Shown here: positions 9,582 to 63,888 of the stretch, piece after piece
How the letters are laid out: the number at the start of each line of letters is the position of its first letter
Position numbering within the stretch: position 1 is the stretch's first letter
Virus record (IMG/VR): IMGVR_UViG_3300047557_003034
Span: 13,362-77,361 of that record
Length of the DNA: 64,000 bases
Source of the DNA: a virus
Direction: 5' to 3' (one strand)
Made by a program: the position numbers and the translations under genes
Notes under the pieces: generated by a model
Databases searched by the model: none
Seen by the model: only the letters and a program-made list of their open reading frames with translations
What the model was told of the DNA's origin: nothing

Positions 9582-9582
9582 T

Positions 9583-11034: not shown

Positions 11035-11046
11035 AACAATATAACT

Positions 11047-11313
11047 ATGGAAGAAACGCAATACGACAACAGAGAATTTATGATATTCGCTGTATCTGAA
11101 CTAGATCAAATCGACTTCACACAGGTCTTGGAAACTAGCATAGATACTGTTAGAAAGTCTGTGGACGGTCTCAAGACTTTTGTGAAGTGGGATGGTCTAA
11201 GTATCCCAAGCTCGGTAGAAGCACTGACAACAAAGGAAGGACCCTACACATACAACGAAATACTCACCATCCTAGCAACACCGGAGTGGACAGATCCTAA
11301 TCCAATCCCATAA
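11047..11313 (+). CDS. Small acidic protein, probable tail fibre accessory/assembly protein
   Basis: Clean 88-aa ORF following the LamG genes; function inferred from context only. Confidence 0.6.
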   Translation: MEETQYDNREFMIFAVSELDQIDFTQVLETSIDTVRKSVDGLKTFVKWDGLSIPSSVEALTTKEGPYTYNEILTILATPEWTDPNPIP

Positions 11314-11342
11314 TTCTTGCAAGCCTTTTACCGACTCTTACC

Positions 11343-11350
11343 TATTTATA
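11343..11350 (+). promoter_or_regulatory. TATTTAT(A/T) putative phage late-promoter element (representative copy)
   Basis: Also at 18863, 24311, 24898, 27911, 28484, 29532, 40607, 45793, 51843, 58598, 63421 and 63868 (+) and 62077-62084 (-), each upstream of a gene and oriented with it. Confidence 0.7.
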
Positions 11351-11385
11351 TGTAGGTGATTTCTAAGTAAAACAGCAAGAAATAT

Positions 11386-14300
11386 ATGGCATACTTACAG
11401 TGTACGGTCATTACTGGGTCTCAAAATGTATTGAGTGTTATAGGTTCAGGTAGTGCCACGACATCTTCTTTGTTATCTGTCGATGGAAATAGCGGAAGGC
11501 TGTTCCAAGTAACCGACACATTATCTGGTTCTCTCTTCTCTGTCAATACAGTATCGGGTCTACCCGTAATAGAGGCATTTTCCGACAACACTGTCCGCAT
11601 TGGACAGTACGGTCAGAAGGCACTTTTTGTATCACAATCCAAGGTAGGAGTTGGCAAGGAAGACTCACTTAACGGAACACTAGACGTATCAGGCAGCTTA
11701 ACTGTTACCGGATCAACCAATATCAACGGTAATCTCACAGGATCTAATGCTCTTTTGACAGGAACTTTGACAGTGAACACGATCAATGTCAGCATACTGT
11801 CATCTTCAATAAGCTTCTTTACGGGTTCTACGATATTTGGATGCTCAATTTCCAATCAACATCAATTTACGGGATCTGTTAGCATAACAGGAAGTTTAAG
11901 AACATGCGGTCCCATGTGCTCCACTACAACAATGGCAATAGGTAGTGGATCTACAGCATCAGGCATCTACAGTAGTGTAGCAGGAGGTAGATTGAACACA
12001 GCATCAGGAAACTATTCACATATAGGAGGCGGTAGTGGTAGCCTAGCATTAGGTGTAAATTCGTTTATAGGCGGTGGTCAGTTTAACTGTATTCCTGCCG
12101 GTGGTCAATGTGCAGTAATAGGAGGCGGTCAATACAACACTGGATCGTCGGTGTTAGGTTTCATTGGTGGTGGTACCAATAACAATATGTCTTGTTTTTA
12201 CGCTGTGATTGGAGGTGGTATATCAAATACAACAAGTGGATACGGCTCAGTAATCGCAGGAGGTAACATAAACAATAACTCAGGTAGATGGGGATTCTTA
12301 GGTGCTGGACGCTCAAATCAGCTATCAGGAAACTGTACTGCTATCGTTGGTGGTGGTAGTAACACGGTTAGTGGATTCTACAATGCAATAGTAGCAGGAT
12401 GTGCTAATACTGTTAGTAATAGTGGTAGTTTCATTGGTGGAGGCTTTGGTAACACGGTATTAGCAGATACCGGATCAATAGTAGGTGGTCGTAGTAATAT
12501 AATCTGCTTAGGTGGCTCCGGTTCATTTATAGGTGGTGGCCAAAGTAATACAGTCTCCGGTAAGTGCAGTGCGGTAGTAGTAGGTCAGCTTAATAGTGCT
12601 ACTGGTGAAAATGGATTTGTAGGCAGTGGTTATCAAAACTCATTCACTGGTTTTAGAGGTGGTATTGTAGCTGGTCAGCAAAATACGTTATCATCCGTTT
12701 ACGGATTTATAGGTTCAGGTCTCTCAAACGTAGTTGCAGCTAGTTCTACCTCAATAATAGCTGGTCAAAATAACTGTGCTATTGGAGCACTTTCCATTAT
12801 AGGAGGTGGTAACTTCAACAGAATGTCAGCTAACTGCGCAGCAGTAGTAGCTGGTACGTACAACACGGGTTCAGGAGCAGGCAGCTTCATAGGTGCTGGT
12901 AGTGGAAGTGTGGCAGCAGGAGCTCTAACATTTATAGGAGGCGGTCAATTTAACTGTGCATCAGCTAACTATGCAGCAGTAGTAGGAGGCTTTCAAAATA
13001 CAGGTTCAGGTACGTTTAGCTTTGTGGGTGGAGGCGGTGGAAATACTGCAGCAGGTGCATGTTCTACAGTAGGCGGTGGTGAAATAAACATTGCAAGCAG
13101 CCAGATATCAACGGTATCAGGTGGATATAGAAACTATGCAGCAAGCTACGCTGCAACTGTAGGGGGTGGATTGCTAAACTGTGCATGTGGATACAACGGA
13201 ACTGTATCAGGCGGATACAGAAACTCAGCATCAGGAAGCTACTCTTTTGTAGGAGGAGGTAAGCAGAACCTAGCACTAGCAGTATCAAGTTCAGTAGTAG
13301 GAGGCTGGCTTAACTGTGTAACTACTAATGGTACTGGTTCATTCATAGGAGGTGGTCAGGGCAACACAGTAACAGGACGACTATCAACAGTAGTAGGTGG
13401 TGCTGGTAACCAAGTTACCGGAAACTGCTCAACAATATCTGGTGGATACTTTAACGTAGCTACTAATACATTAGCAGCAGTAGTAGGTGGTCGGAATAAT
13501 CAAGCACGAGGAGAAAATAGCGTAGTAGGTGGATATTTCAACTGTGCTTGTGGTGTTTCAAGCATAGTAGCAGGCGGACACAATCAGACTGTGCTAAGCA
13601 GTTATGGCACTGTAAGTGGAGGTTACAACAACTGTATTACATCAACTCTAGCTGATTCATCGACAATTAGTGGTGGATATCAAAATAGAATATCAAGCAT
13701 CCGTTCCGTCATAGCAGGAGGTCAAAATAACGTTATCAGTGGAAACCGATCATTCATAGGGGGTGGTCGACAAAATACAGCATCAGGCAACTATGCATCA
13801 GTAGCAGGTGGTAGTGGAAGTGTAGCATCAGGACTTAACTCATTCGTAGGAGGCGGTCAATTCAACCTAGCAAACGGTGCATGTGCATCGGTAGTAGGTG
13901 GCTTTCAAAACACTGGTTCAGGTGGATTTAGCTTTGTAGGAGGCGGTACAGGAAGTATTGCAGCAGGACTTTATAGCTCTGTAATAGGTGGATTCATAAA
14001 CTGTGCTAGCCAAGTCTACGCAACAGTAGGTGGTGGTGGTAGGAATCTTTCAAGTGGAAACAGTACGACAGTAAGTGGTGGCTATGGTAACCAAGCAACA
14101 GTCACCTTCGCAAGTGTGTTAGGTGGTGTAGGCAACGTAGCTACGGGACATACCTCAACTGCGGTAGGAGGACAATCCAACTCAGCAACAGCTTGTCATT
14201 CGTTTGTAGGAGGTGGTGCATCAAATACGGTAGCAGCAGAAACAGGATCTATAGTAGGTGGTCGTAGTAACAGCATAACTTCAAACGGCTCTGGTTCATT

Positions 14301-17300
14301 TATAGGTGGTGGTCAAGGTAACATAGTCTCAGGACAGCTATCGACAGTGGTAGGTGGTCTTGTTAATCAAGTTACTGGCTGTCATAGTGTTGTGGGAGGT
14401 GGTATAACTAACTGTGTAACTGGAAATTGCTCTACAGTAGCAGGTGGCAGACTTAACACTGTAAGTAATAATTATTCTGTAATTGCTGGAGGTAATGTTA
14501 ATACTGCATCAGGTCAAGCTTCTTTCGTAGGTGGTGGCTTCCGAAATACAAGCGGACTCACCTATTCAATAGTAGTTGGTGGTATAGATAACATATCAAA
14601 TGCTAACAGATCAGTAATAGTTGGTGGTGAGTCCAATTGTATTGTGACCGGTGGTTATAGTTTCATAGGCGGTGGTCAACTGAACACTGGATCAGGAGCG
14701 TTTAGCTTCATAGGAGGAGGTAGTGGTAGTGTGGCAGTAGGAGCTAATTCATTTATAGGAGGCGGTCAATTCAACATAGCAGGTAACTGTGCAGCAGTAG
14801 TAGGTGGGCAATTAAACACAGGTTCAGGGTACTGGAGCTTTGTAGGTGGAGGCTGTTTGAATCTAGCAATTGGAAACAATTCATTTGTGGGTGCTGGTAG
14901 GCAAAACTGCACTACGCAAAACTGTTCGGTATCAGTTGGAGGATACAACAATGTTGCTAGCGGTGTCAATTCAACAGTAGTTGGAGGCTTTGTAAACACA
15001 GCAAGTGGTTATAGATCGGGAATACTAACTGGTCAAGGTAACGTAGCAGATGGTCAGTGGAGCTTTCTTGGTGGTGGAAACTTCAACCAAGCAAACGGCG
15101 TCTGCTCAGTTACTGTGGGTGGTAGATTTAACTGCTCAAATGCAACATCGTCTTTTGTAGGTGGTGGATGTGGAAACTACGTTGTAGCAAACAGTGCATC
15201 AATAGTAGGTGGACACGGTAACATAGTAACCGTTGGAGGCTCTGGTTCATTTATAGGTGGTGGTCAAGGAAACTTAGTATCAGCACAGCTATCAGCACTG
15301 GTAGGAGGTTTTGGTAACCTAGCATCAGGAAATGGCTCATTTGTAGGAGGTGGTGTTATAAACTGTGCAACTGGAAACTGCTCTACAGTAGGTGGAGGAC
15401 GTTGGAATGTAGCATCAAACAACAGTGCAACTGTTATAGGAGGTTGGGTTAACACAGCATCAGGTCTTTATAGTGTGACAGCAGGTTACGAAAACAAAAA
15501 CTCAGCCAATTACGGAGTAATACCAGGAGGTGGTACTAACTGCTTACAAGCAGGTGCAAGCTATTCAACAATATCAGGAGGCTACACAAACATATTAACT
15601 AACACATACTCTGCAATTGGAGGTGGTCTTCGAAACAGTGGGTCAGGTGCATTTAGCTTCATAGGAGGTGGTTTCTGTAACAACAACGCAGCAGCAGGAG
15701 GCTTTATAGGAGGTGGTTTTAACAACTGTTTAACTACAGCTGCAGTATCAGCTTCAATAGCAGGCGGTGATAGAAACTGTGCTACAGGCTGCTTTGCATT
15801 CATAGGAAATGGTCAACTGAACACTGGATCAGGAGTTTACAGCTTCGTTGGAGGTGGTTCTGGAAATAGAGCAACACTCAACGGTGCTGCTGTTGTGGCA
15901 GGCACAACTAACGGAGCTACAGACGTAGCTGCATTTGTAGGAACTGGTTTTTGTAATAATGCAACTGGCAGAGCATCTGCAATCGTCAGCGGTTTTCTCA
16001 ACTCAGCATCGAACTTTTACGCAGCAGTACTTGGCGGTGCTCGCAACTGTGCAATTGCTAGAGCATCAGCAATAGTAGGTGGATGTGTAAATGCAGCAAG
16101 AGCTTCCGGATCATTCATAGGAGGTGGTCAACAAAACTGCAACTCAGGAGATTGTGCAGTGATAGGTGGTGGTATCCAAAATTGCCTAACAGGTAATGCG
16201 TCAGTTTTAACAGGAGGTAGTGCTAATGCAGTTGGTGCACCACATGCATTCCTGGGAGGTGGTCAATTCAACTTAACATCAGGATCCCACTCTAGTATAG
16301 TTGGTGGTGTACTTAATTGTGTTATGGGCAATTGTACAACCGTAGTTGGTGGTCAAAGCAACACTGGTTCAGGAGCATGGAGCTTTGTAGGAGGCGGTCA
16401 GTGTAATAACGTATCAGCAAATTATACAACACTATCAGGAGGATACTTCAATACAGCATCAGGTAGGTATGCAACACTCGTAGGTGGAGATTCTAACACA
16501 GCTGGCGGTAGAGCTAGTTTTGTTGGTGGAGGCATTAACAACAGAACATGTGCACCAGCCTCATCATCAGTTCTTGCTGGTGGTCAAAGTAACGTATTGC
16601 AAGGACTGAGAAGTGCAATGTTGGGAGGCTATCTCAACACTGTATCAAGCACATACGGAACAATAGGAGGTGGTTATTTCAATATAGTAGGCGGAGCAAA
16701 CGGATTTATAGGTGCAGGTGACACCAACTTTGTATCAGGATCACATGCAAGTGTGGTAGGAGGATTTGGAAACTGTGCAACAGGCAACTGCTCAGCAGTA
16801 GTAGGAGGTTTTCAAAATACCGGATCAGGCATAGCTAGTTTCGTAGGAGGTGGCATTCAAAACTGTGCTTGCGGTTGCAGGACTTTTGTAGGAGGTGGAT
16901 CTAATAACTGCGCATTCGATAGCTGGGCAACAGTAGGTGGCGGCTATCTTAATGTGGCCAGCGGATCACATAGTACAGTTGGAGGTGGCTGTACAAACAT
17001 AGCTAGTGGATCGGCTGCTACTGTGGCTGGTGGATCTAACAACTGCGCATTTGAACTCTCGGCAACTGTGGGTGGTGGTGGAGTGAATACTGTTAGAAGG
17101 TGTTTTGGTACAATTGCTGGAGGATATTTGAACTGTACAGATGGTGCTTTTGGAACCATCAGTGGCGGTTATCAAAACAGAGCTAGTGGATCCCACAACT
17201 TTATAGGCAGCGGTCGCTGTAACACATCCAGCGGATCTTATGTGGCAATAGTAGGCGGACGGTTCAACTGTATTGAAGGAGCAGTCTCCTATAGCTTTTT

Positions 17301-17937
17301 AGGAGGTGGTCAGTTGAATATTGTGGCTGCAACAGCAGCTACTATAGCAGGTGGTGATAGAAACTGCATAACAGCAGCTTGTTCAGCAATCTTGGGAGGC
17401 ACTCTTAACACTGCATCAGCAGTATTTGCAGGAGCTTTTGGATGTAACATTAATGCAAATGTAGCAAACCACTTCTTTGTTAACAATCTTAACGCAACAA
17501 ATAACATCACGGGATCAAATGCTCGCTTTACAGGTACAGCAACAATAGGTTCTGCACTTGCAGTTGGAGCAATAACGCCATCAGCAACAGTAGGTCGTAT
17601 TGACGCAGCCAACGACGTAGTAGCATTTTCAACTTCAGATAGGAATCTCAAGACCAATCTTACTCCAATTTCAGATGCACTTTATAAGATAGCGGAGATA
17701 ACAGGATATGAATTTGATTGGATACCAAACGAAGAGATACATGGGTACGAAGGTCATGATGTAGGTATCATAGCTCAAGAGATAGAGAAAGTACTTCCTG
17801 AAGTGGTAACAACAAGATCTAACGGCTACAAAGCAGTTAAGTATGAGAAGATTGTACCACTCCTCATTCAAGCAATTAAAGAACAAAGCCAGCAAATAAA
17901 GAGATTAGAAGAGTTAATCAAGACAATCAAAGGGTAA
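11386..17937 (+). CDS. Second giant repeat tail fibre/adhesin with C-terminal peptidase S74 chaperone
   Basis: Same 15-aa repeat. C-terminus STSDRNLKTNL...GYEFDW...DVGIIAQEIEKVLPEVV...VKYEKIVPLLIQAIKE. TATTTATA motif upstream. Confidence 0.87.
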   Translation: MAYLQCTVITGSQNVLSVIGSGSATTSSLLSVDGNSGRLFQVTDTLSGSLFSVNTVSGLPVIEAFSDNTVRIGQYGQKALFVSQSKVGVGKEDSLNGTLDVSGSLTVTGSTNINGNLTGSNALLTGTLTVNTINVSILSSSISFFTGSTIFGCSISNQHQFTGSVSITGSLRTCGPMCSTTTMAIGSGSTASGIYSSVAGGRLNTASGNYSHIGGGSGSLALGVNSFIGGGQFNCIPAGGQCAVIGGGQYNTGSSVLGFIGGGTNNNMSCFYAVIGGGISNTTSGYGSVIAGGNINNNSGRWGFLGAGRSNQLSGNCTAIVGGGSNTVSGFYNAIVAGCANTVSNSGSFIGGGFGNTVLADTGSIVGGRSNIICLGGSGSFIGGGQSNTVSGKCSAVVVGQLNSATGENGFVGSGYQNSFTGFRGGIVAGQQNTLSSVYGFIGSGLSNVVAASSTSIIAGQNNCAIGALSIIGGGNFNRMSANCAAVVAGTYNTGSGAGSFIGAGSGSVAAGALTFIGGGQFNCASANYAAVVGGFQNTGSGTFSFVGGGGGNTAAGACSTVGGGEINIASSQISTVSGGYRNYAASYAATVGGGLLNCACGYNGTVSGGYRNSASGSYSFVGGGKQNLALAVSSSVVGGWLNCVTTNGTGSFIGGGQGNTVTGRLSTVVGGAGNQVTGNCSTISGGYFNVATNTLAAVVGGRNNQARGENSVVGGYFNCACGVSSIVAGGHNQTVLSSYGTVSGGYNNCITSTLADSSTISGGYQNRISSIRSVIAGGQNNVISGNRSFIGGGRQNTASGNYASVAGGSGSVASGLNSFVGGGQFNLANGACASVVGGFQNTGSGGFSFVGGGTGSIAAGLYSSVIGGFINCASQVYATVGGGGRNLSSGNSTTVSGGYGNQATVTFASVLGGVGNVATGHTSTAVGGQSNSATACHSFVGGGASNTVAAETGSIVGGRSNSITSNGSGSFIGGGQGNIVSGQLSTVVGGLVNQVTGCHSVVGGGITNCVTGNCSTVAGGRLNTVSNNYSVIAGGNVNTASGQASFVGGGFRNTSGLTYSIVVGGIDNISNANRSVIVGGESNCIVTGGYSFIGGGQLNTGSGAFSFIGGGSGSVAVGANSFIGGGQFNIAGNCAAVVGGQLNTGSGYWSFVGGGCLNLAIGNNSFVGAGRQNCTTQNCSVSVGGYNNVASGVNSTVVGGFVNTASGYRSGILTGQGNVADGQWSFLGGGNFNQANGVCSVTVGGRFNCSNATSSFVGGGCGNYVVANSASIVGGHGNIVTVGGSGSFIGGGQGNLVSAQLSALVGGFGNLASGNGSFVGGGVINCATGNCSTVGGGRWNVASNNSATVIGGWVNTASGLYSVTAGYENKNSANYGVIPGGGTNCLQAGASYSTISGGYTNILTNTYSAIGGGLRNSGSGAFSFIGGGFCNNNAAAGGFIGGGFNNCLTTAAVSASIAGGDRNCATGCFAFIGNGQLNTGSGVYSFVGGGSGNRATLNGAAVVAGTTNGATDVAAFVGTGFCNNATGRASAIVSGFLNSASNFYAAVLGGARNCAIARASAIVGGCVNAARASGSFIGGGQQNCNSGDCAVIGGGIQNCLTGNASVLTGGSANAVGAPHAFLGGGQFNLTSGSHSSIVGGVLNCVMGNCTTVVGGQSNTGSGAWSFVGGGQCNNVSANYTTLSGGYFNTASGRYATLVGGDSNTAGGRASFVGGGINNRTCAPASSSVLAGGQSNVLQGLRSAMLGGYLNTVSSTYGTIGGGYFNIVGGANGFIGAGDTNFVSGSHASVVGGFGNCATGNCSAVVGGFQNTGSGIASFVGGGIQNCACGCRTFVGGGSNNCAFDSWATVGGGYLNVASGSHSTVGGGCTNIASGSAATVAGGSNNCAFELSATVGGGGVNTVRRCFGTIAGGYLNCTDGAFGTISGGYQNRASGSHNFIGSGRCNTSSGSYVAIVGGRFNCIEGAVSYSFLGGGQLNIVAATAATIAGGDRNCITAACSAILGGTLNTASAVFAGAFGCNINANVANHFFVNNLNATNNITGSNARFTGTATIGSALAVGAITPSATVGRIDAANDVVAFSTSDRNLKTNLTPISDALYKIAEITGYEFDWIPNEEIHGYEGHDVGIIAQEIEKVLPEVVTTRSNGYKAVKYEKIVPLLIQAIKEQSQQIKRLEELIKTIKG

Positions 17938-17940
17938 GTT

Positions 17941-18828
17941 ATGGCGATACCAGCATCAGGACCGGTTTCAATGAGTATGCTCAATGTTGAATTGGGCAGA
18001 AGTTTTAACACAGCCAACTCAGCTCTGGCAGGTTCTTCGACACCTTCCATAGGATCTCTATTCTATCTTGGTGCACAGAGTGGTAGTCTTAATCAAACAG
18101 CACCACATGCAATAAGTGAGTGGTACGGATACACTACTATAATTCCACAACCTACACTTAAGTATGATGCTTACAGCAGTAGCTACGACGGATCTGTATC
18201 AGTTAACTTAGGTTCAGGAGGTACAACGTATAACTTAAATGAGACAGGAACTGTAGAGACTGGTAGTGGAACTAATCTAGGAAGCAATTACTATAATATA
18301 AACTTGCCTGGAACTACAACTGGATATCTTACATCTAGTTTTTCTCCCGTACCGTCCAACACTTCATTCTCTATTAGTATAATGGCATTTATTACTGGTA
18401 GCTCTGGTCAACTGTTTAGTATAGAATTAGCAACAGGTAACCGACTATACATCGAGACTAATTTTGTAACAACTGGTGTGTACGATATCAGAGCTAATTT
18501 ATACTCAGCAGGTACTAGAGTAGTATACTTATCTGGATCTATAAATCAAAATGATTGGAATCACATAGTTTGGGTGCATGATAACAACTTAGCTACGGAC
18601 GATAGTAAGCTGTACATCAACAATGCATTAGCTCAATCTGTCACAGCAACCAATAACATATCTCAAACTGATGCATATCAAATCAGAGTTGGTATTAACA
18701 TACTTTCGACCATTGTTAGCTATAGATTAGGATCGGTCTCTTTCTGGAATGGTTACTATCTAGCACCTTTACAAATAGAAGACCTATATAACGAGTTCTA
18801 CGACAGATACGTGTACGTACCCGTATAA
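17941..18828 (+). CDS. Fibre-tip adhesin-like protein with LamG-like domain
   Basis: MAIPASGPVSMSMLNVELG N-terminus of a type often seen directly after S74 fibres; WNHIVWV...KLYINN LamG-like strands. Confidence 0.6.
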   Translation: MAIPASGPVSMSMLNVELGRSFNTANSALAGSSTPSIGSLFYLGAQSGSLNQTAPHAISEWYGYTTIIPQPTLKYDAYSSSYDGSVSVNLGSGGTTYNLNETGTVETGSGTNLGSNYYNINLPGTTTGYLTSSFSPVPSNTSFSISIMAFITGSSGQLFSIELATGNRLYIETNFVTTGVYDIRANLYSAGTRVVYLSGSINQNDWNHIVWVHDNNLATDDSKLYINNALAQSVTATNNISQTDAYQIRVGINILSTIVSYRLGSVSFWNGYYLAPLQIEDLYNEFYDRYVYVPV

Positions 18829-18889
18829 GCAATTTCAAGCAACTTAATGTAACAGAAGCAACTATTTATAACAGTAAAACATAAAAACT

Positions 18890-19228
18890 ATGATGATAAT
18901 TGGCAAAATCGATCCGACAGCTACAATATACCTTCAATCGGATCCGTTTAATCCTTCTACAATTACAGGATCTTACATTGCTGCTGTAGCACGTCCTTAT
19001 GTTCTTGGTACCAACAGTGTAAACTTCCAAGTGTCTTATGGTAACTGTACTTTCGATGAAGGTGGTAACATAACTGAGTTCACTACTATCTTCAATAGTA
19101 ATTGCAACCTTTCTGGTACAGCAATTGAGACTTGGGGTACAGATGACACAGTAGTTCTTCAAGAGATTGCACAAGCGCAAGGTACAACTGTTACACAGTT
19201 CTACTCAAGCAGTCTTAACATATTCTAA
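18890..19228 (+). CDS. Hypothetical virion-associated protein
   Basis: 112-aa ORF with TATTTATA motif upstream. Confidence 0.6.
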   Translation: MMIIGKIDPTATIYLQSDPFNPSTITGSYIAAVARPYVLGTNSVNFQVSYGNCTFDEGGNITEFTTIFNSNCNLSGTAIETWGTDDTVVLQEIAQAQGTTVTQFYSSSLNIF

Positions 19229-19270: not shown

Positions 19271-20146
19271 ATGAACATAATATTCCAAATCAACGGAGGA
19301 ATAGGTAAATGTATTATGGCTACCGCTGTATGCGAAGCCATTAAAAAGCAATACCCAAACTCTAAGCTCATAGTTGTTTCAGGATACGCAGATGTGTTCT
19401 TAAATAACCCACATGTTGATAGATCGCTGCAGTTTGGCAGCATAAGTTACTTCTACGAAGAGTATTTGCAAAACGAGAAGGACTTCAAAGTATTCGCTCA
19501 CGATCCGTACGTACAAACCGAATATCTCTACCAAAATGAACACTTGATTCAAACTTGGTGTGAGATGTTCGGCATTGCTTATGATGGTGAATACCCAAGC
19601 ATACATCTGACAGATAGAGAAAAAACATTCCTAAGCTCCAAATTTACATCGGATAGACCGATGCTAGTAATGCAAACAAATGGAGGAGCTGATGCAAACT
19701 TAAAGTACTCCTGGGCAAGAGATTTACCAGCCAATAACGTAACGGATGTAGTACAATACTTTTCTGAGCATTATAACATTGTGCATATAAGAAGAGAAGA
19801 TCAAATACAATATCCAGGCACAATACCAGTATCAGACAACTTCAGATCACTTGTGGTGCTTATATCACTGAGCCATAAGAGGCTGTTTATTGATAGCATG
19901 GGTCAACATGTGGCTGCATGTTTAGGATTACCATCAACAGTGTGTTGGGTTGTGAATAAACCTGAAGTCTTTGGATACCCAATACACGATAACATCATCT
20001 GTAAACCATTCACCAAGAAACCAGAGCTGAGAAATTCATACTTCCAGCAGTTCAATATTGGTGGTGATTTACTAGAATTTCCCTATAACTCCGAACACGA
20101 AGTGTTTGATAGCAAAGACATCATAAACTCAATACTAAAACAATAG
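19271..20146 (+). CDS. GT9 (ADP-heptose:heptosyltransferase)-like glycosyltransferase
   Basis: N-terminal GGIGK..MAT.V...IKK.YP...LIV motif, LNNPHVD, C-terminal FIDS..QHVAA.LG.P, resembling the GT9 GxGD...DSG..H.AAA pattern. Confidence 0.7.
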   Translation: MNIIFQINGGIGKCIMATAVCEAIKKQYPNSKLIVVSGYADVFLNNPHVDRSLQFGSISYFYEEYLQNEKDFKVFAHDPYVQTEYLYQNEHLIQTWCEMFGIAYDGEYPSIHLTDREKTFLSSKFTSDRPMLVMQTNGGADANLKYSWARDLPANNVTDVVQYFSEHYNIVHIRREDQIQYPGTIPVSDNFRSLVVLISLSHKRLFIDSMGQHVAACLGLPSTVCWVVNKPEVFGYPIHDNIICKPFTKKPELRNSYFQQFNIGGDLLEFPYNSEHEVFDSKDIINSILKQ

Positions 20147-20151
20147 GTTAC

Positions 20152-20970
20152 ATGGAGAAGTTATTCTTTCAGAGTTCTTTACCGAGAGCAGGCAGTACAC
20201 TTTTACAAAACATTCTCGCACAAAACCCAGACATCTATGCTACTCCTACATCAGGAGTGTTAGAACTTGTGTTTGCAGCAAGAGGAAATTACACTGAATC
20301 ACCAGAGTTCATTGCTCAAGATCCAAGTCTAATGCGAGCAGGCTTTTTATCCTTTTGTAGAAAGGGAATGGATGGCTTTTACGAAGCTGTGACAGACAAG
20401 AAGTACGTAGTAGATAAATCAAGAGGATGGGGAATACACTACGACTTCCTCAACCTAATCTATCCAGAACCCAAGATCGTTGTCATGGTTAGGGACCTAA
20501 GAGACATCTTCTGTTCAATGGAGAAGAACTTCAGAAAGAATCCTGACAAAGCTAGTTCAGTTCTTAACTGGTCACAGATGAGCGGTACAACAGTACCTAA
20601 GAGGATTGATATATGGGCTCAATCACAGCCGGTAGGACTTGCAATAGAGAGGTTGTCTGAAATATTCAGGCAGGGACTTGACAGTAAAATGCTATTTGTT
20701 CGCTTTGAAGATCTTTGTTTATATCCCGAAACTGAGATGACTAGGATCTATCAATACCTCGATATCCCCTACTACCAGCATGATTTTGATCATATAGAAC
20801 AAGTGACAAAGGAAGATGATGAGGTGTATGGTATGTTCGGAGATCACCAGATCAGAACTAAGTTAGCTCCTGTACCATCTACTGCTAAACAAGTACTTGG
20901 AAAGGATGTAACAGAGTGGATTTGGAATGCATACCCCTGGTATTTCCAACAGTTTAGGTACACAAAATAA
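20152..20970 (+). CDS. PAPS-dependent sulfotransferase
   Basis: 5'-PSB loop SLPRAGSTLL, DKSRGW, 3'-PB motif VRDLRDIFCS, VRFEDL. Confidence 0.85.
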   Translation: MEKLFFQSSLPRAGSTLLQNILAQNPDIYATPTSGVLELVFAARGNYTESPEFIAQDPSLMRAGFLSFCRKGMDGFYEAVTDKKYVVDKSRGWGIHYDFLNLIYPEPKIVVMVRDLRDIFCSMEKNFRKNPDKASSVLNWSQMSGTTVPKRIDIWAQSQPVGLAIERLSEIFRQGLDSKMLFVRFEDLCLYPETEMTRIYQYLDIPYYQHDFDHIEQVTKEDDEVYGMFGDHQIRTKLAPVPSTAKQVLGKDVTEWIWNAYPWYFQQFRYTK

Positions 20971-20974
20971 AAGT

Positions 20975-21412
20975 ATGATATACTGGTTCACTGGTCAGCC
21001 TGGAGCAGGCAAAACAACTCTCTGCAAAAGTCTCATTCTTCAGTTCTACCCGTCTAAGACAATTCACGTGGATGGTGACGACATAAGAGAGATTTTTGAA
21101 AATAAAGATTACTCGGAAGCAGGTAGAAGAAAAAACGTAGAGCTTGCACAGAACATTGCCTACTTCATGCATAAAAAAGGCTACCTAGTGTTGGTTTCAC
21201 TAGTATCTCCTTATAAAGATCAAAGAGAAGCCTTCAAAGCACGGCTAGGTGACTCAATTAAGGAAATCTACGTACATGCGTTTACAGATAGGGGTAGAAC
21301 GCAGTTTCACGTGGCTAATTACGAGCCTCCTACTGAGAACTACATTGACATAGATACAACAAATGCCACTGAATTTGAGTCGTTAAAACAGCTATTAACA
21401 CAGATAAAATAA
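20975..21412 (+). CDS. cysC: Adenylylsulfate (APS) kinase
   Basis: MIYWFTGQPGAGKTT P-loop, DGDDIR, YS..GR..N, SLVSPY, YEPP; ATG at 20975 follows the sulfotransferase stop. Confidence 0.85.
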   Translation: MIYWFTGQPGAGKTTLCKSLILQFYPSKTIHVDGDDIREIFENKDYSEAGRRKNVELAQNIAYFMHKKGYLVLVSLVSPYKDQREAFKARLGDSIKEIYVHAFTDRGRTQFHVANYEPPTENYIDIDTTNATEFESLKQLLTQIK

Positions 21413-21774
21413 TGATAAAAGAAGCAGAAATAGTTGAAAAAGGTTGGGGACAGGAAGTGGTGTTTGCAAATAGCCAGCAGTATTGTGGTAAAATACTCGT
21501 ATTCAAGGAAGGTGGTACTAGCTCAATGCATTACCACATACAAAAGCAAGAGACTTGGTACGTTACAAAAGGTAAGTTTCTGTACAAGTACATTGATACA
21601 GATACAGCAGATGTACTAGAGGCTGAACTAAATGTCGGAGATGTTGTGACAAATCTAAGAGGAGAACCACATCAGTTAATAGCTCTAGAAGAGAATAGTG
21701 TAATATTCGAAGTGTCAACAGAGCATATAGATGAGGATTCTTACAGAGTATTTAAAGGAGATTCACAACAATGA
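21412..21774 (+). CDS. Cupin-fold sugar isomerase (mannose-6-phosphate isomerase/lyxose isomerase-like)
   Basis: KGWG.E, YCGKIL, SMHYH..K.ETWYV..G, PHQL, EVST cupin motifs. Confidence 0.75.
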   Translation: MIKEAEIVEKGWGQEVVFANSQQYCGKILVFKEGGTSSMHYHIQKQETWYVTKGKFLYKYIDTDTADVLEAELNVGDVVTNLRGEPHQLIALEENSVIFEVSTEHIDEDSYRVFKGDSQQ

Positions 21775-22184
21775 AAGTTTGGGTAAATGGAACATTTGAT
21801 GTTTTACATTTGGGGCATATTAGGTTACTTGAGTATGCTGCCAGTCATGGAGAGGTCAGAGTGGGGGTGGACACAGATGAGAGAGTTAGACAGGCGAAAG
21901 GTCCAACCAGACCCTTTAACATACTTAGAGATAGGATGGCTATGCTATCATCTATCAGGTATGTTAGTAGCGTCGTGTCTTTTGGTACAGATGATGAACT
22001 TGTACAATGTGTTATGGAGTACAAACCTGACATTATGGTAGTTGGCTCAGATTATGAGAACAAGAGGGTTATTGGTCATGAGCATGCGGATGTTTTAATA
22101 TTCTTTCCCAAAATCCAATCGTACAGCACAACTGACATATTAAGGTATGAAACAAATATTAATAATCGGGGATCAGTGTATTGA
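21771..22184 (+). CDS. hldC: Heptose-1-phosphate nucleotidyltransferase (RfaE domain II/HldC-like)
   Basis: NGTFDVLHLGH, KGPTRPFN, KPDIMVVGSDY, YSTT motifs. Confidence 0.8.
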   Translation: MKVWVNGTFDVLHLGHIRLLEYAASHGEVRVGVDTDERVRQAKGPTRPFNILRDRMAMLSSIRYVSSVVSFGTDDELVQCVMEYKPDIMVVGSDYENKRVIGHEHADVLIFFPKIQSYSTTDILRYETNINNRGSVY

Positions 22185-22890
22185 TAAGTTTGTGTACGGA
22201 GAAGCAAAGAGACTAAGTCCTGAAGCTCCTGTACCAGTCTTTACACCTCATAATACAGCAACCAGCAATGGAATGGCTGCAAATGTTGCACGTAATCTAC
22301 GAGCAATGGCTCCCGAATACATGATAACAACTCAACACAATCCGGAAACCATAACTAAGACTAGGTATATCGATCATAAGACAAATCATATGTTTCTTAG
22401 AGTGGATGAAGGAGATACTGTGAAACCACTTGAACTAGATCTAAAACTAAGAGCTTCCATCCCAGAATTTGATGCTGTTGTAGTAAGCGATTATAACAAA
22501 GGATACCTACCACTCAGCGTTATTGAGTACATAGGTAAGAATGCCAAAATGTCTTTCATTGACTCTAAAAAGAAGCTGCCACTAGAAGTTGCTAGTCTTT
22601 ATACTATTGTCAAAATGAACGAACAAGAGTATGAGAGCTATAACGGGTCTCTAGACTCAATCTCAAACAGCCTCATAATCACACTAGGTAGTAAGGGAGC
22701 TAAGTATAAGCACAAAGTATTCAACTCACTGCAGCCAAAAGAAACGATAGATGTGAGTGGTGCTGGAGATACTTTCCTAGCAGCATTCGTATATTGGTAC
22801 CTACAGACAGGATCAATCCAATCAGCAATAGTCCATGCCAATGAAAAAGCCGCTATAGTTGTAACTAAAAAAGGAGTTGCTGTACCATGA
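22147..22890 (+). CDS. hldA: Heptose-7-phosphate kinase (RfaE domain I/HldA, PfkB family)
   Basis: GD..ID.FVYG...RLSPEAPVPV, SDYNKG, DVSGAGDTF. Confidence 0.88.
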   Translation: MKQILIIGDQCIDKFVYGEAKRLSPEAPVPVFTPHNTATSNGMAANVARNLRAMAPEYMITTQHNPETITKTRYIDHKTNHMFLRVDEGDTVKPLELDLKLRASIPEFDAVVVSDYNKGYLPLSVIEYIGKNAKMSFIDSKKKLPLEVASLYTIVKMNEQEYESYNGSLDSISNSLIITLGSKGAKYKHKVFNSLQPKETIDVSGAGDTFLAAFVYWYLQTGSIQSAIVHANEKAAIVVTKKGVAVP

Positions 22891-23699
22891 ATATAGTAGT
22901 GACTGGTCATTTAGGTTTTATTGGTCGTAATCTGAAAGCAGAGCTTGAAAAGAAACACCAAGTCTACGGGATTGAAGTAGATGCCTATGATGATGCAGAC
23001 TGGCAATTTACACTAAAAAACAAACTGGATAGCATAAAACCAACTGCTATTTTTCATGTAGGAGCAATATCAAACACGCTTCATACGGACGTTGAAACCA
23101 TAATGAAACTAAACTGGGAGACAACAACAGTGTTTTCAGACTACTGCAAAGCAGTAAACATTCCACTAATCTACAGCTCAACTGCAGCTATCTACGGAGA
23201 TGGTGAAGGTAAGAAAAACCTATATGCTTGGACTAAGTATGCAGGAGAGAAGTATGTAATAGCAAACAATCAAATAGCTCTCAGGTACTTCAACGTATAC
23301 GGACCTGGAGAGGATAAAAAGAAACGTATGGCATCAGTTGCCTACCAAGCCTTTTTGCACGATATACACGGAACCAAGATCAAGCTGTTCAAAGGAGAAC
23401 CAAAGAGAGACTTCGTATACGTAAAGGATGTAGTGGATGCAAACATATTCGCACTTAAGAATTACTTCAAACTAACTAAGAAACAATATGATGTGGGTGT
23501 TGGTAAAGCGGTTACGTTTGAGTATCTTATGGATATAATGAATCTCAAGTACGCATATCAAGATATATCAGCAATACCAAACAACTATCAATACCATACC
23601 CAAAGTAATCCTGAAAACTGGATGAAGGGTTGGAAACCTAAATACGACGTTGAGAAAGGATTAAATGAATACAAGCAACACTTATGGAATACTATTTAG
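22887..23699 (+). CDS. hldD: ADP-L-glycero-D-manno-heptose 6-epimerase
   Basis: VTG..GFIG, YSSTAAIYG, YxxxK (YAWTK), LRYFNVYGPGE..K..MASV, RDFVYVKDVV. Confidence 0.82.
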   Translation: MNIVVTGHLGFIGRNLKAELEKKHQVYGIEVDAYDDADWQFTLKNKLDSIKPTAIFHVGAISNTLHTDVETIMKLNWETTTVFSDYCKAVNIPLIYSSTAAIYGDGEGKKNLYAWTKYAGEKYVIANNQIALRYFNVYGPGEDKKKRMASVAYQAFLHDIHGTKIKLFKGEPKRDFVYVKDVVDANIFALKNYFKLTKKQYDVGVGKAVTFEYLMDIMNLKYAYQDISAIPNNYQYHTQSNPENWMKGWKPKYDVEKGLNEYKQHLWNTI

Positions 23700-24082
23700 C
23701 AAGAGCAGCTGGAGATTTGCTGACAAAAGGACCTAAATATGCCATGTTCATAGGAAGATGGCAACCATGGCATGCTGGACATAGGTGGCTTATTGATCAA
23801 GCACTTAACAAAGGTAAAAATGTTCTCATCTGCATAAGAGATGTAGAACCTGATGATAAAAATCCTTGGACTGCAAAGCAGATACTTGACAATCTTGCAA
23901 ACGAGCTTAAAGATTTGCTTTTAGAAGGCAGAGTAGTACTGCTTGTGATTCCTGACATAGAGTCTGTCAACATAGGTAGAGGTGTTGGATATGATGTAAT
24001 AGAACATACACCACCCGAAGAAATCAGACAGATATCAGCAACAGCAATCAGGGAAGAAATGAAAAAGGAAGGTAAACTGTGA
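23684..24082 (+). CDS. HIGH-motif (HUP-fold) nucleotidyltransferase, candidate minimal ATP sulfurylase
   Basis: FIGRWQPWHAGH and C-terminal ISATAIR; lies in an operon with APS kinase and a sulfotransferase. Confidence 0.65.
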   Translation: MEYYLARAAGDLLTKGPKYAMFIGRWQPWHAGHRWLIDQALNKGKNVLICIRDVEPDDKNPWTAKQILDNLANELKDLLLEGRVVLLVIPDIESVNIGRGVGYDVIEHTPPEEIRQISATAIREEMKKEGKL

Positions 24083-24291
24083 AGGTAACTGCAAAACGAC
24101 ATATAGCAAAAACAATCAGCTACCGTATTGTAAGTACGTTGATAGGGTTTTTGATAATGTGGTGGGCAACAGGAAGTGTGAAAGTGGGAGCGGCTTTTGG
24201 TGTAGCTGAACTGATCTATAAACCAGTTCAATACTACATTCATGAGAGAGTTTGGTATAAATGGATAAAATTTGGATTAGTGAAAGAGTAG
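24079..24291 (+). CDS. DUF2061-like small membrane protein
   Basis: RHIAKTISYR...YYIHERVW pattern with two hydrophobic segments; GTG start. Confidence 0.75.
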   Translation: MKVTAKRHIAKTISYRIVSTLIGFLIMWWATGSVKVGAAFGVAELIYKPVQYYIHERVWYKWIKFGLVKE

Positions 24292-24336
24292 TTTTTCTGT
24301 AATCTCTTAATATTTATATATAACAAAACAGCAATT

Positions 24337-24925: not shown

Positions 24926-27046
24926 ATGGCAGAAGCATTAATAAGTCCTGGTGTTTTCCTAAGAGAAAACGACCTATCCCAGATAACAGTTGGACCAATT
25001 ACGGTAGGATCAGCATTGATTGGTCCTACTGTTCTTGGTAGAGCTAATGTACCAACCCTAGTAACATCCTACTCTCAGTACAAAGCGAGATTTGGAGCTA
25101 CCTTTATTTCAGGAGGTACCACTTACGAATATCTGACCTCTCAAGCTGCGTACAACTACTTTCAACAAGGTGGTACATCGCTCTTAGTAACAAGAGTCAC
25201 TAGTGGTTCCTATACTCCAGCATCAGCTAGTGTATTAAATAATCTAGGAAGCACAGCTGGTGCTGTGATTAACGACAACAGCGCATCTTTTCAAAACTAC
25301 CCAGCAACTAATACATCAGCCTTTGAGTTGACTGGATCTGGATTAGCTAAGATATTCATCACATCTAGTACTTTTATAGGTAGTGACTCAGCTCCTAACT
25401 ATTTTGTTGCTTCTGGTTCAAGTCAAGCACTTACATCAGCAGCTATAGTATCAAAAATTAACACCCTAACGTCTACGTTAGGAATTGTAGCAACACTGAG
25501 CGGCAATGCTTTCACACTAGCCGCTAACGTTCCAGGTACTGCAGGAAATAGTTACATCTATAGAACTGGTTCCATTACCAGTACTTTTTCTGGTGGACTT
25601 GCTCAAACAGCTAGCTTCGAACTAGAAACTATATCCGTAGGTAACGCAATGAATAACAACTACAACTCAGCAGCAGGTGTAGCAGTTAACGGTGTACTTC
25701 AATCAGGTTCAGCTGATAACATTAGATGGCAGATTACACAAGCTGATACAGCTTCTGGATACTTTACTCTTTTGATCAGGCAAGGTAACGATTACACAGC
25801 TAATCAAAGCGTACTTGAGACTTGGTCTAACATCTCTCTTGATCCAAACCAGAACAACTACATTGAGTATGTAATTGGTAACCAAACTTATCAAGTACTT
25901 ACAGATGAATCTGGTCAAGCTTACTTGCAAGTTACTGGTAGCTATCCAAACGCGTCTAACTACGTTAGAGTTAAAGCAGTAAACTACCCAACACCAAACT
26001 ATCTTAGCCCTACTGGTCAGGCACAACCTCAATACACTGCATCCATTCCTGTAAACGGAAGTGGATCTTACAATGGTTCGTTTGGTGGTGCAAGCGGTCC
26101 TTTATTTGGAGGTCTTGGTGTAGCAGCAGTTAACCTTTACGAATCGATTCCAACAGTAACTTCTACAACTCCTGCAACCAACATTCAGGGTCTTGTAGCA
26201 GCAGATTACAACACAGCAATTAATCTACTTGCAAATACAGATGCATACGTCTACAACGCAATATATGCACCTGGTTTGACTAATCAGAATGCATCAACTC
26301 AAGTAAGTGCTCTACTAGCTACTGTGCAAAATCGTGGTGATGCTATTGCAGTAGTAGACATGGTTGGATACAATCAAACAATCACAGCAGTATCAACTGC
26401 AGCACAATCTTACGATAACTCATACGGTGCAACTTACTGGCCTTGGGTTCAGCTAAGATCAACTGAGACTGGTAGACTTAATTTCGTTCCTGCATCAACA
26501 ATTGTACCTGCAGTTTATGAGTACAATGATAAAGTAGCTGCTGAATGGTTTGCACCAGCAGGTTTAAATCGTGGTGGTCTTCCGACAGTAATTCAACCAG
26601 AAAGAAGGCTAACAGTAGCACAGAGAAACACACTCTATACTGCTAAAGTAAACCCAATAGCAATATTCCCTGGTCAAGGTACAGTAATATACGGTCAGAA
26701 GACTCTACAAGCTAGAGCATCTGCTCTTGATCGTGTGAATGTAAGGCGTCTTTTGATTGCTCTTAAGAGTTACATCGGTCAAATTGCACAAACACTCGTG
26801 TTCGAACAAAACACAGCTGTTACACGTAACAAGTTCTTGTCTCAAGTTAATCCATACCTTGAGTATGTACAACAAAGACAAGGTCTCTATGCATTCAGAG
26901 TAGTAATGGATGACACCAATAACACTCCAGATGTAATTGATAGAAACTTGCTTGTAGGTGCTATTTACTTACAACCAACTAGGACTGCTGAATTTATTCA
27001 ACTTGATTTCAACATCCTACCAACTGGTGTAACATTTGGACAGTAA
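24926..27046 (+). CDS. Contractile tail sheath protein
   Basis: SPGVFLRENDLS N-terminus; YWPW, WFAPAGLNRG, VNPI, GQKTL, RVNVRRL, FEQN, PTRTAEFI. Confidence 0.95.
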   Translation: MAEALISPGVFLRENDLSQITVGPITVGSALIGPTVLGRANVPTLVTSYSQYKARFGATFISGGTTYEYLTSQAAYNYFQQGGTSLLVTRVTSGSYTPASASVLNNLGSTAGAVINDNSASFQNYPATNTSAFELTGSGLAKIFITSSTFIGSDSAPNYFVASGSSQALTSAAIVSKINTLTSTLGIVATLSGNAFTLAANVPGTAGNSYIYRTGSITSTFSGGLAQTASFELETISVGNAMNNNYNSAAGVAVNGVLQSGSADNIRWQITQADTASGYFTLLIRQGNDYTANQSVLETWSNISLDPNQNNYIEYVIGNQTYQVLTDESGQAYLQVTGSYPNASNYVRVKAVNYPTPNYLSPTGQAQPQYTASIPVNGSGSYNGSFGGASGPLFGGLGVAAVNLYESIPTVTSTTPATNIQGLVAADYNTAINLLANTDAYVYNAIYAPGLTNQNASTQVSALLATVQNRGDAIAVVDMVGYNQTITAVSTAAQSYDNSYGATYWPWVQLRSTETGRLNFVPASTIVPAVYEYNDKVAAEWFAPAGLNRGGLPTVIQPERRLTVAQRNTLYTAKVNPIAIFPGQGTVIYGQKTLQARASALDRVNVRRLLIALKSYIGQIAQTLVFEQNTAVTRNKFLSQVNPYLEYVQQRQGLYAFRVVMDDTNNTPDVIDRNLLVGAIYLQPTRTAEFIQLDFNILPTGVTFGQ

Positions 27047-63841: not shown

Positions 63842-63888
63842 CTGGGTGCCGTTTTGTGTTTTTTAGCTATTTATACTAAAGGTATAAA

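Follow-up and report, generated by a model that had tools for sequence, protein, structure and literature searches.

Here we describe a compact operon of an uncultured lake phage, for which we see about an even chance that it adds a sugar, probably heptose, as well as sulfate to the fibres of the phage itself, with an adenylyltransferase-like protein (NT2) taking the place of ATP sulfurylase and a cupin that of GmhA. The window, which is the whole stretch of DNA that was analysed, comprises 64,000 nucleotides (positions 13,362 to 77,361 of IMG/VR record IMGVR_UViG_3300047557_003034); all coordinates below are those of the window, and all features lie on the + strand.

The operon (19271-24291) consists of nine open reading frames whose junctions are either overlaps of 1-44 nt or gaps of 5 nt. 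They encode a GT9-fold glycosyltransferase (GT), a sulfotransferase (ST), an adenosine phosphosulfate (APS) kinase, a cupin, HldC-, HldA- and HldD-like enzymes, NT2 and a DUF2061 protein, and inspection of the catalytic motifs of the enzymes found all of them intact. Two giant Gly/Ser/Asn-rich fibres border the operon on one side and the tail sheath (24926..27046) on the other. The preliminary description had placed the nine genes between the fibre genes and the sheath, which is borne out by the ORF positions and the family matches. A promoter-like motif, CTATTTATA, is located at 18862..18870, 20 nt upstream of the start codon of o18890 (18890..19228), which encodes a small virus-only protein (112 aa) and accompanies the fibre gene. 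Further copies of the motif stand before the fibre B, sheath and tube genes; all 11 copies lie upstream of a gene, on the + strand, and a scan of the window found none within the operon. It is not conserved in the relatives of this phage. The presence before the operon of a single motif that is common to fibre, sheath and tube genes counts in favour of the fibres as target.

The proposed acceptors are the two giant fibres. Fibre A (2..8836) is open at the 5' end of the window and has a C-terminal S74 intramolecular chaperone (PF13884, 6e-11), and fibre B (11386..17937; 2183 aa) contains an S74 chaperone (PF13884, 4e-15) and a beta-roll-like region (PF21300, 2e-9). Fibre A is followed by three LamG/ConA-like lectin-fold proteins (8841-9581, 9436-10344 and 10348-11034; PF13385, 3e-17, 2.5e-11 and 4.7e-20, respectively), fibre B by one LamG-like protein (17941..18828; PF13385, 1e-5, slightly below the cut-off). 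ISGG, VSGG and ASGG motifs had been described as numerous in the fibres; each fibre has only 7-8 copies of [IVA]SGG, which is therefore not frequent there. The true repeat unit is ~15 residues long (S-[FT]-[VI]-G-G-G-x-x-N-x-[AV]-[ST]-G); fibre B contains ~100 copies of it, and fibre A has ~150 GG..N anchors. The fibres consist of 21-22% Gly, 12% Ser, 8% Thr, 9-10% Asn and 3-3.5% Cys, and contain ~2% Asp plus Glu.

The GT (19271..20146; 291 aa) was identified using an AF2 model (pLDDT 97), Foldseek and hhalign. It has no Pfam match at E <= 0.01, PF01075 included, and this family was reached only by two distant members of the GT family (P0351 and c9 in L025) with 22.9-23.9 bits (cut-off 22). 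The best Foldseek matches were GT9 enzymes (3tov, WaaF 1psw, WaaC 2h1h, 6dfe and TibC 4rap; E 1e-12 to 1e-7), and hhalign yielded a probability of 86.7% for WaaF (E 4e-6, donor domain) and 47.6% for WaaC. The conserved donor motif D-S-x-x-x-H aligns with D-[ST]-G-x-x-H of WaaC and WaaF, and residues D208, S209 and H213 show little or no variation across 73 sequences. The GT thus shares with WaaC and WaaF (CAZy GT9, PF01075) the fold (TM ~0.57-0.65) and a donor motif D-[ST]-x-x-x-H, but differs in that it lacks a PF01075 match, its context is not that of lipopolysaccharide (LPS) genes, and its N-terminal acceptor domain is not alignable, with no detectable similarity to either enzyme. It is probably a heptosyltransferase that acts on a non-LPS acceptor; the context of its putative donor, ADP-heptose, is a heptose block in the window as well as in 6 of 52 relatives, and likely hosts whose own GmhA and HldA homologues score near the cut-offs.

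The fold matches of the GT include TibC, whose heptosylation target is an adhesin encoded beside it, and this counts for modification of the fibres. The TibC-TibA and Aah-AIDA-I systems of E. coli (BAHT; PDB 4rap, 4rb4) likewise have a cytoplasmic GT9-fold GT-B enzyme encoded beside a long beta-solenoid repeat protein. The BAHT enzymes O-heptosylate the neighbouring repeat protein with ADP-heptose, whereas the phage acceptor is a proposed one. The phage enzyme is shorter than the TibC chains in the PDB matches (381-390 aa), presumably with no room for the iron-finger or dodecamer insertions of TibC, and it has no NCBIfam match, TIGR04414 (BAHT, TibC/Aah) included. Moreover, its gene follows that of the putative substrate, whereas the BAHT gene comes before it; the substrate would be a fibre of the phage or a repeat protein of Bacteroidota rather than an autotransporter; and an ST and a PAPS supply are attached.

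The main rival reading, which we consider rather unlikely, is that the operon instead remodels an envelope glycan of the host (heptose-containing, sulfated LPS, a capsule or another lipid-linked glycan), either as a superinfection block or to keep progeny off debris. The rank of WaaF and WaaC among the best GT9-fold matches argues for this, as does the set of HldA, HldC and HldD, which is the donor pathway of the LPS core; the dissimilar acceptor domain of the GT argues against it. That characterised GT9 enzymes act mostly on LPS, and that HldA, HldC and HldD normally feed its core, also counts against the fibres as acceptors. Host O-chain modification is how such genes have been read (PMC7029224), and for the GT and rfaE genes that are linked to fibres in pelagimyophages, a host-directed role is the default published view (PMC7029224).

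The ST (20152..20970) is a PAPS-dependent sulfotransferase of the Sulfotransfer_3 family (PF13469, 1.4e-19; 71.6 bits, cut-off 27) with a sulfotransferase-like fold; the 5'-PSB motif (PRxGS) is present as PRAGS at residue 11 and the 3'-PB motif (RDxR...S) as RDLRD at residue 114. All PDB sequence matches and the eleven best Foldseek matches are tyrosylprotein sulfotransferases, and the best NCBIfam match is the carbohydrate sulfotransferase NoeE (1.6e-10), a glycan enzyme that speaks for an envelope target. We consider it doubtful, although the tyrosylprotein sulfotransferase matches favour it, that the fibres receive two separate modifications, with the ST sulfating tyrosines of the repeats directly and the GT adding a sugar that is not sulfated. 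The TM-scores of these matches are only ~0.6, with carbohydrate sulfotransferases ranking close behind. The fibres do offer 58-82 Tyr, many of them within [IV]SGGYxN loops, but known Tyr-sulfation sites are acidic, unlike these fibres. Bacterial repeat proteins (see below) from cassettes with an ST are richer in Tyr (3.3% vs 2.1%; p = 0.007) and poorer in acidic residues than those without, in an exploratory comparison of 9 with 22 proteins that was one of seven tests and was not corrected for kinship. Finally, the GT and ST genes are nearly always adjacent, which fits consecutive action of the two enzymes.

The sulfate donor would be supplied by the next enzymes. The APS kinase (20927..21412) is a short form of 161 aa (PF01583, 4.6e-17; 62.9 bits, cut-off 21.1) that has a P-loop (residue 23), the motifs DGDDIR (residue 49) and SPY (residue 94) and a short C-terminus, and scores below the TIGR00455 equivalog cut-off (70 vs 138.7 bits). 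NT2 (23684..24082; 132 aa; PF01467) is an NMNAT-like adenylyltransferase. Its match to PF01747, the Sat-type ATP sulfurylase model, is below the cut-off (9.2 bits, E 0.027; cut-off 24.3), and it is the sole place on the contig that responds to this model. A PDB profile search returned NMNATs only; NT2 lacks their C-terminal third. Fusions of NT2 with bona fide PF01583 APS kinase domains occur in both orders in ~15 protein clusters and parallel the ATP sulfurylase-APS kinase fusions of PAPS synthases. We regard NT2 as a candidate for a minimal ATP sulfurylase. A dedicated sulfotransferase is likewise joined in one unit with ATP sulfurylase and APS kinase in PAPS synthases and in rhizobial NodPQ-NodH/NoeE, from which the phage set differs in that NT2 is NMNAT-like, of ~130 aa and neither Sat nor CysDN, and in that the acceptor is not Nod factor. 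The last gene encodes a two-helix membrane protein (24079..24291; PF09834, 4.6e-16), which corresponds, as a separate protein, to the DUF2061 domain that Bacteroidota carry in fusion with APS kinase. Being membrane-embedded, it would fit a lipid-linked acceptor and thus an envelope glycan.

NMNAT-like NT2 and the APS kinase could also form an auxiliary metabolic module that boosts the host's sulfate assimilation or NAD pools rather than feeding a modification pathway, with NT2 acting as NMN adenylyltransferase. The matches of NT2 to NMNATs only would agree with this, cysC-type genes are catalogued as viral auxiliary metabolic genes, and NMNATs fused to a P-loop kinase are known from NadR-type proteins. 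We nevertheless judge it highly improbable: in the 52 related loci the APS kinase never occurs without the ST, nor NT2 without the APS kinase, the fusion partners of NT2 are genuine APS kinases, and the missing C-terminal third sets NT2 apart from NMNATs.

The heptose genes are adjacent to each other and encode HldC-like heptose-1-P adenylyltransferase (21771..22184; TIGR02199, 5e-26), HldA-like PfkB heptose-7-P kinase (22147..22890; TIGR02198, 3.6e-39) and HldD-like ADP-heptose 6-epimerase (22887..23699; TIGR02197, 2.4e-49). All score below the equivalog cut-offs (HldC 91.2 vs 181.5, HldA 134.7 vs 345, HldD 168.2 vs 274.6 bits); despite this, the three models are their best NCBIfam matches, and their GAGD, HxGH, GxxGxxG and YxxxK motifs are intact. 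Neither GmhA (SIS, TIGR00441) nor GmhB (TIGR00213) was found on the 77-kb contig, which represents ~41% of the genome, so that their absence, first noted for the window, extends to the whole contig. The preceding gene encodes a metal-binding cupin (21412..21774; PF07883), which is not a SIS protein. The suggestion that it replaces GmhA gains support at the family level, since D-lyxose/mannose isomerases are its closest relatives of known structure, and we regard it as a candidate sedoheptulose-7-P isomerase analogous to GmhA; the isomerase activity itself is predicted. A mini HAD phosphatase gene is carried by relatives and absent from the window, whose distinguishing feature is a heptose block without it.

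A similar block is present in the 'LPS gene' cluster of cyanophage P-SSM2 (PSSM2_307-313), which includes a GT homologue (24% identity), HldC, HldA, the same cupin and HldD. The GT homologue is located two genes from the heptose block, and all of these genes lie between tail-fibre genes. In P-SSM2, a NolO-like carbamoyltransferase gene takes the place of the ST and PAPS genes, the mini HAD gene is present, and the epimerase is encoded on the opposite strand.

Among related phages, GT and ST form a constant core (49 of 52 loci). The sulfate genes are nested, with ST in 49, APS kinase in 41 and NT2 in 32 loci and none of them without the preceding member; DUF2061, like NT2, is nested within the set that has the APS kinase. 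The heptose block is an accessory insert (6/52), and heptose synthesis is no constant partner of the core; the preliminary description's reading that the phage makes its own donors to decorate its fibres is partly supported, by the fibre linkage in phages and bacteria. A fibre-like gene on the same strand directly precedes the GT in 44 of 55 related phage loci, and four further, rearranged loci have an inverted fibre gene and small partner that still adjoin the core, the 112-aa protein being inverted along with the fibre in loci L054-L059. Occurrence of the operon apart from such fibres had been named as grounds for rejecting a role in their decoration; these counts did not refute that role. 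The right-hand neighbours of the core vary, and the sheath gene holds this position in only 16 of 52 relatives. The phage loci are kin to each other, and their common synteny is therefore not independent evidence. If the operon modified the host envelope, the fibre adjacency might merely reflect a plastic host-recognition region, which leaves its persistence after inversion unexplained. The FkbM, GT25 and GT4 enzymes inserted in relatives are typical glycan builders and fit an envelope target; conversely, the SET-domain gene (protein methyltransferase family) between GT and ST in nine relatives and the resemblance of the ST to tyrosylprotein sulfotransferases point to protein substrates.

Counterparts in bacteria provide an independent case of linkage. 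Chromosomal contigs of Chitinophagales/Flavipsychrobacter (up to 1 Mb) contain a cassette of a repeat protein, an NHL T9SS protein, a GT, sometimes accompanied by FkbM, and, in some loci, an ST; in the ST-bearing loci examined, cysDN and a DUF2061-APS kinase fusion adjoin, cysDN being present in hosts where the phage has NT2. In five Chitinophagales genomes (23 Mb), six of seven fibre-like repeat genes are followed within 7 kb by a same-strand GT homologue, an arrangement that modification of the host envelope leaves unexplained. These proteins have only the repeat region in common with the phage fibres; they lack an S74 domain, and no obvious signal peptide was seen by eye in four examples.

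Related systems have been predicted or described. Bacterial operons with hydroxylases, sulfotransferases and PAPS synthetases have been predicted to act on tail-collar or glycine-rich proteins (Iyer et al. 2010, PMC2938197). That study is likewise computational and takes the co-encoded Gly-rich or phage-fibre-like protein as the sulfated substrate; its operons differ in using dioxygenase-made hydroxyls, in having no GT9 enzyme, and in being bacterial rather than directed at a virion. Mycobacteriophages encode glycosyltransferases that decorate their own virion proteins (Freeman et al. 2023, PMC10527164, via PMC12619734); as relayed by the latter source, the C-termini of capsid and tail-tube proteins are modified by other GT families, with neither sulfate nor donor synthesis mentioned.

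Taken as fibre decoration, the operon would be a late-expressed kit for the virion. The GT would attach a sugar, in all likelihood ADP-heptose-derived L-glycero-D-manno-heptose, to Ser or Thr (or Cys) of the 15-residue repeats of both giant fibres in the cytoplasm, and the ST would next sulfate the added sugar, or the protein directly. For the sulfate donor, NT2 would adenylylate sulfate to APS and the APS kinase convert it to PAPS, with DUF2061 tethering these steps to the membrane; for the sugar donor, sedoheptulose-7-P would be isomerised by the cupin and pass through HldA, a host GmhB phosphatase, HldC and HldD. Related bacteria seem to decorate their own fibre-like proteins in the same manner.

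The virus record from which the sequence derives (IMG/VR; the window covers bases 13362-77361) has a length of 77,361 bp and was judged to be about 41% complete. The source phage is contractile-tailed; its tail sheath (24926-27046) shares 48% identity with the sheath of Flavobacterium phage immuto, and the tail tube gene comes next. Also encoded on the plus strand of the window are a GroEL-type chaperonin (59440-61101; phrog_5725, 4e-150) and a tmRNA (63450-63842; ARAGORN) whose tag peptide ends in AA. The operon claimed in the preliminary description was confirmed as nine plus-strand open reading frames in 19271-24291, which overlap by 1-44 nt or are separated by gaps of 5 nt. The first three genes code for a glycosyltransferase (GT; 19271-20146), a sulfotransferase (ST; 20152-20970; Sulfotransfer_3, 1.4e-19) and an APS kinase (PF01583, 4.6e-17). 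A cupin comes fourth, followed by an adenylyltransferase of HldC type (TIGR02199), a PfkB kinase of HldA type (TIGR02198) and an epimerase of HldD type (TIGR02197); the best match of each of these three, given in brackets, falls short of the equivalog cut-off. The last two genes encode NT2 (23684-24082), a 132-aa member of the cytidylyltransferase superfamily similar to NadM or archaeal NMN adenylyltransferases, and a DUF2061 protein (a 70-aa helical hairpin). Catalytic motifs are intact in every operon enzyme, including those of ST (PRAGS, RDLRD), APS kinase (P-loop, DGDDIR, SPY), the cupin (HxH...E), HldC (HxGH, STT), HldA (GAGD) and HldD (GxxGxxG, YxxxK). Searched by blastn, 50,697 phage records contained no match to the operon.

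Upstream of the operon lie two giant fibre genes, fibre A (2-8836, 5' end open) and fibre B (11386-17937), whose products both terminate in S74 intramolecular chaperone domains and are each followed by LamG-fold proteins. The fibres consist of units of about 15 residues (approximately 150 in fibre A and 100 in fibre B) with the consensus S-[FT]-[VI]-G-G-G-x-x-N-x-[AV]-[ST]-G, and are composed of 21-22% Gly, 12% Ser, 8% Thr, 9-10% Asn and 3-3.5% Cys, with charged residues very scarce. The abundance of SGG motifs reported earlier was not borne out, as [IVA]SGG was counted just 7-8 times per fibre. The repeat (600 aa) had zero matches at 1e-8 in the 50,697 phage records. The general O-glycosylation system of Bacteroidota was rejected as an explanation because each fibre contains just two copies of its sequon, D(S/T)(A/I/L/V/M/T).

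GT gave no match in Pfam and NCBIfam searches. Its AF2 model, built from 73 homologues (pLDDT 97), has GT9 enzymes as top Foldseek matches (3tov, WaaF 1psw, WaaC 2h1h and 6dfe, and TibC 4rap, an adhesin heptosyltransferase). In profile comparisons, the C-terminal donor-binding half aligned with WaaF (86.7% probability) and WaaC (47.6%), and the aligned region contains a D-S-x-x-x-H motif with complete or almost complete conservation across the GT family; similarity of the N-terminal acceptor half to WaaC or WaaF was undetectable. Based on the fold matches and the profile alignment confined to the donor half, GT is GT9-like by fold and donor motif, yet lies outside Pfam model membership and outside TIGR04414 (TibC/Aah). 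Complex prediction of GT with residues 560-770 of fibre B gave a score of 0.00, which weighs neither way on binding.

With GT as query, 70 related IMG/VR loci (54-79% identity) were fetched, and gene content was counted in the 52 loci with at least 6 kb downstream of GT. ST is present in 49 of the 52, ST and APS kinase in 41, and these two together with NT2 and DUF2061 in 32; only six carry the heptose block (cupin, HldC, HldA, HldD) in addition. Nesting is perfect, with no NT2 without APS kinase and no APS kinase without ST. The check suggested in the preliminary description, whether operon and fibres co-occur in relatives, did not refute its reading. Among the 55 phage loci whose sequence extends 3 kb or more ahead of GT, 44 have a fibre-like gene upstream on the same strand. 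Usually one small protein separates fibre and GT, either the one found in the window (18890-19228), which matches solely viral hypothetical proteins in a protein atlas, or an unrelated one (hhalign probability 0.6%, relationship undetectable). In four loci, the fibre and the former small protein are inverted yet still abut GT-ST. The downstream neighbours of the module vary, with a sheath gene in just 16 of 52 loci. Beside the module in 18 loci, the opposite strand encodes a protein that combines GT4 and GT9-like domains in about 1,130 aa (e.g. L025:9892-13278, minus strand). Genes inserted among GT, ST and APS kinase encode FkbM methyltransferases, GT25 and, between GT and ST in nine loci, a SET-domain protein (L049:3026-3412; 128 aa, PF00856 7e-13), a possible pointer to a protein substrate; GT also occurs fused to FkbM or to GT25. 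DNA glycosylation was set aside since the linkage of the module is with fibre and sulfotransferase genes and not with replication genes.

When one genome for each species of prokaryote was scanned with an alignment (A2) narrower than the highly diverse A1, 72 cellular loci were recovered. Most belong to metagenome-assembled genomes of freshwater Chitinophagales (Flavipsychrobacter, Taibaiella, Chitinophagaceae), with contigs as long as 1 Mb. The bacterial cassette comprises, in this order, a repeat protein, an NHL-repeat protein carrying a T9SS sorting domain, GT and, in some loci, ST. The repeat proteins (500-1,280 aa) have the repeat and composition of the phage fibres, with 27-40% identity (tblastn), and lack the S74 domain. 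In five loci (L083, L084, L089, L108, L074), they share a conserved N-terminal M-[SP]-T-F-x-x-F-C and a C-terminal L-P-x-G-x-x-Y...V-[KR], and each is followed by the T9SS-sorted NHL propeller; by eye, no obvious signal peptide was seen in four examples. The bacterial GT has 45-56% identity to that of the phage and is fused to FkbM in some cases, and ST, present in about 15 loci, has 54-58% identity. In five Chitinophagales genomes (23 Mb), six of seven repeat-protein regions lie at most 7 kb upstream of a same-strand GT.

Because GT, and in some loci ST, is tied to such repeat proteins in two different genomic settings, decoration of the phage's own fibres with sugar and sulfate is the best-supported reading, to which we give an even chance. 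A serious rival, which we consider clearly less probable, is remodelling of a host envelope glycan. It has precedent in pelagimyophages and cyanomyophages, where glycosyltransferases and rfaE in a fibre-linked 'host recognition cluster' were interpreted as modifying the host O-chain (PMC7029224), and cyanophage heptose genes have been annotated as LPS genes (PMC7378029). For bacteria, operons have been predicted in which sulfotransferases and PAPS synthetases modify co-encoded tail-collar or Gly-rich proteins (Iyer et al. 2010; PMC2938197). Mycobacteriophages are the only phages for which virion glycosylation is established (Freeman et al. 2023, cited in PMC12619734). Our literature search found no paper describing a phage GT9-sulfotransferase-PAPS module.

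A variant of fibre decoration, in which tyrosines of the fibres are sulfated directly, appears unlikely. All PDB sequence matches of ST and its eleven best Foldseek matches (E 4e-8, TM about 0.6) are tyrosylprotein sulfotransferases; polyketide and heparan sulfotransferases rank next by fold, and the best NCBIfam match is NoeE. Host repeat proteins with ST in the cassette are richer in Tyr (3.3% vs 2.1%) and Cys and poorer in acidic residues, a difference that is only a lead from an exploratory comparison of 9 with 22 proteins (seven tests, kinship ignored).

Returning to decoration with sugar and sulfate, heptose is the likely attached sugar, and it is not constant across the system. Where present, the heptose block lies between APS kinase and NT2 in the order cupin, c24, HldC, HldA, HldD, where c24 is a 100-aa mini HAD phosphatase (DxDGT motif; match at 1e-16 to the capsule biosynthesis protein PDB 9iqw). 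It is homologous to PSSM2_311 of phage P-SSM2 (L001:8722-9066) and to other genes (e.g. L008:8954-9259). Since a mini HAD phosphatase of this type probably performs the GmhB step, the public annotation of PSSM2_311 as 'phosphoheptose isomerase' looks wrong. The cupin is a metal cupin whose closest solved relatives are D-lyxose/D-mannose ketol-isomerases (2y0o, 7e-5); this relationship fits a role in the GmhA step, because isomerisation of a ketose to a manno-aldose is the same chemistry. The accessory block including c24 would cover all five steps up to ADP-L,D-heptose. Neither c24 nor gmhA or gmhB was found on the 77-kb contig (about 41% of the genome), and the window phage would depend on a host phosphatase; a heptose block lacking the HAD gene is the feature that sets the window apart. 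Homologues of GmhA (about 200 bits) and HldA (about 310 bits), both scoring near the cut-off, are encoded in the five Chitinophagales genomes, which makes a supply of ADP-heptose in the likely host probable.

For sulfate activation, about 15 protein clusters contain fusions of NT2 with the APS kinase domain (PF01583), with either partner first. By sequence NT2 is an NMNAT-like enzyme without the C-terminal third, and the sole response of the contig to the ATP-sulfurylase model PF01747 lies inside NT2 at just 9.2 bits, so that a role as ATP sulfurylase is drawn from context and implies no family assignment. No NT2 homologue was found in the Chitinophagales genomes in a search run without a positive control. 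Host cassettes L083 and L089 are flanked by cysN and cysD, and L089 encodes a DUF2061 domain fused N-terminally to a full-length APS kinase (10583-11479, minus strand; 205 bits) beside the ST cassette and cysD. This fusion ties DUF2061 to PAPS synthesis; nothing on DUF2061 function was found in the literature, and longer phage-type DUF2061 proteins have no enzyme domain. The phage module looks like a portable version of the host cassette, in which NT2 stands in place of cysDN and the DUF2061-kinase fusion is split.

The motif CTATTTAT(A) has 11 copies in the window (11342, 18862, 24897, 27910, 29531, 34371, 40606, 45792, 51842, 63420 and 63867), all on the plus strand just upstream of plus-strand genes and none on the other strand, and may be a promoter element specific to the phage. 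Copies precede fibre B, sheath and tube, among others, and the copy at 18862 precedes the small gene ahead of GT; the operon itself contains none, and further on, related motifs next occur at 24311 and 24897. This arrangement suggests that, in the window phage, the operon is a single transcription unit co-regulated with structural genes. Across 60 related loci, the motif has neither strand bias (179 vs 153) nor fixed position, and therefore provides no clade-wide argument for late expression.

We tentatively propose an unrecognised modification system common to Chitinophagales and their large phages, with O-heptosylated, sulfated fibres and two phage-borne non-orthologous replacements. A GT9-fold enzyme would O-heptosylate the beta-roll repeat fibres, with sulfation afterwards. 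The phage version would be self-sufficient because it carries both replacements, namely NT2, a 130-residue NMNAT-like protein that would be a third kind of ATP sulfurylase, and the cupin as putative sedoheptulose-7-phosphate isomerase. The large phages sharing the system probably infect Chitinophagales, and the virion may display the same sulfated glyco-fibre as the host surface.

To our knowledge, no phage has been shown to carry a sulfated-sugar modification of the virion. If the proposal is true, this would be the first phage particle bearing sulfate, and in a group of freshwater phages that is abundant, the tail fibres would be coated with sulfated sugar from donors supplied by phage enzymes. 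Two enzyme predictions would be open to assay, namely a minimal ATP sulfurylase and an analogue of GmhA of the cupin type, and Flavipsychrobacter would offer a culturable entry to a new bacterial system of protein glycosylation and sulfation. Such a coat would also revise the view of host recognition, particle stickiness and antigenicity in environmental phages.
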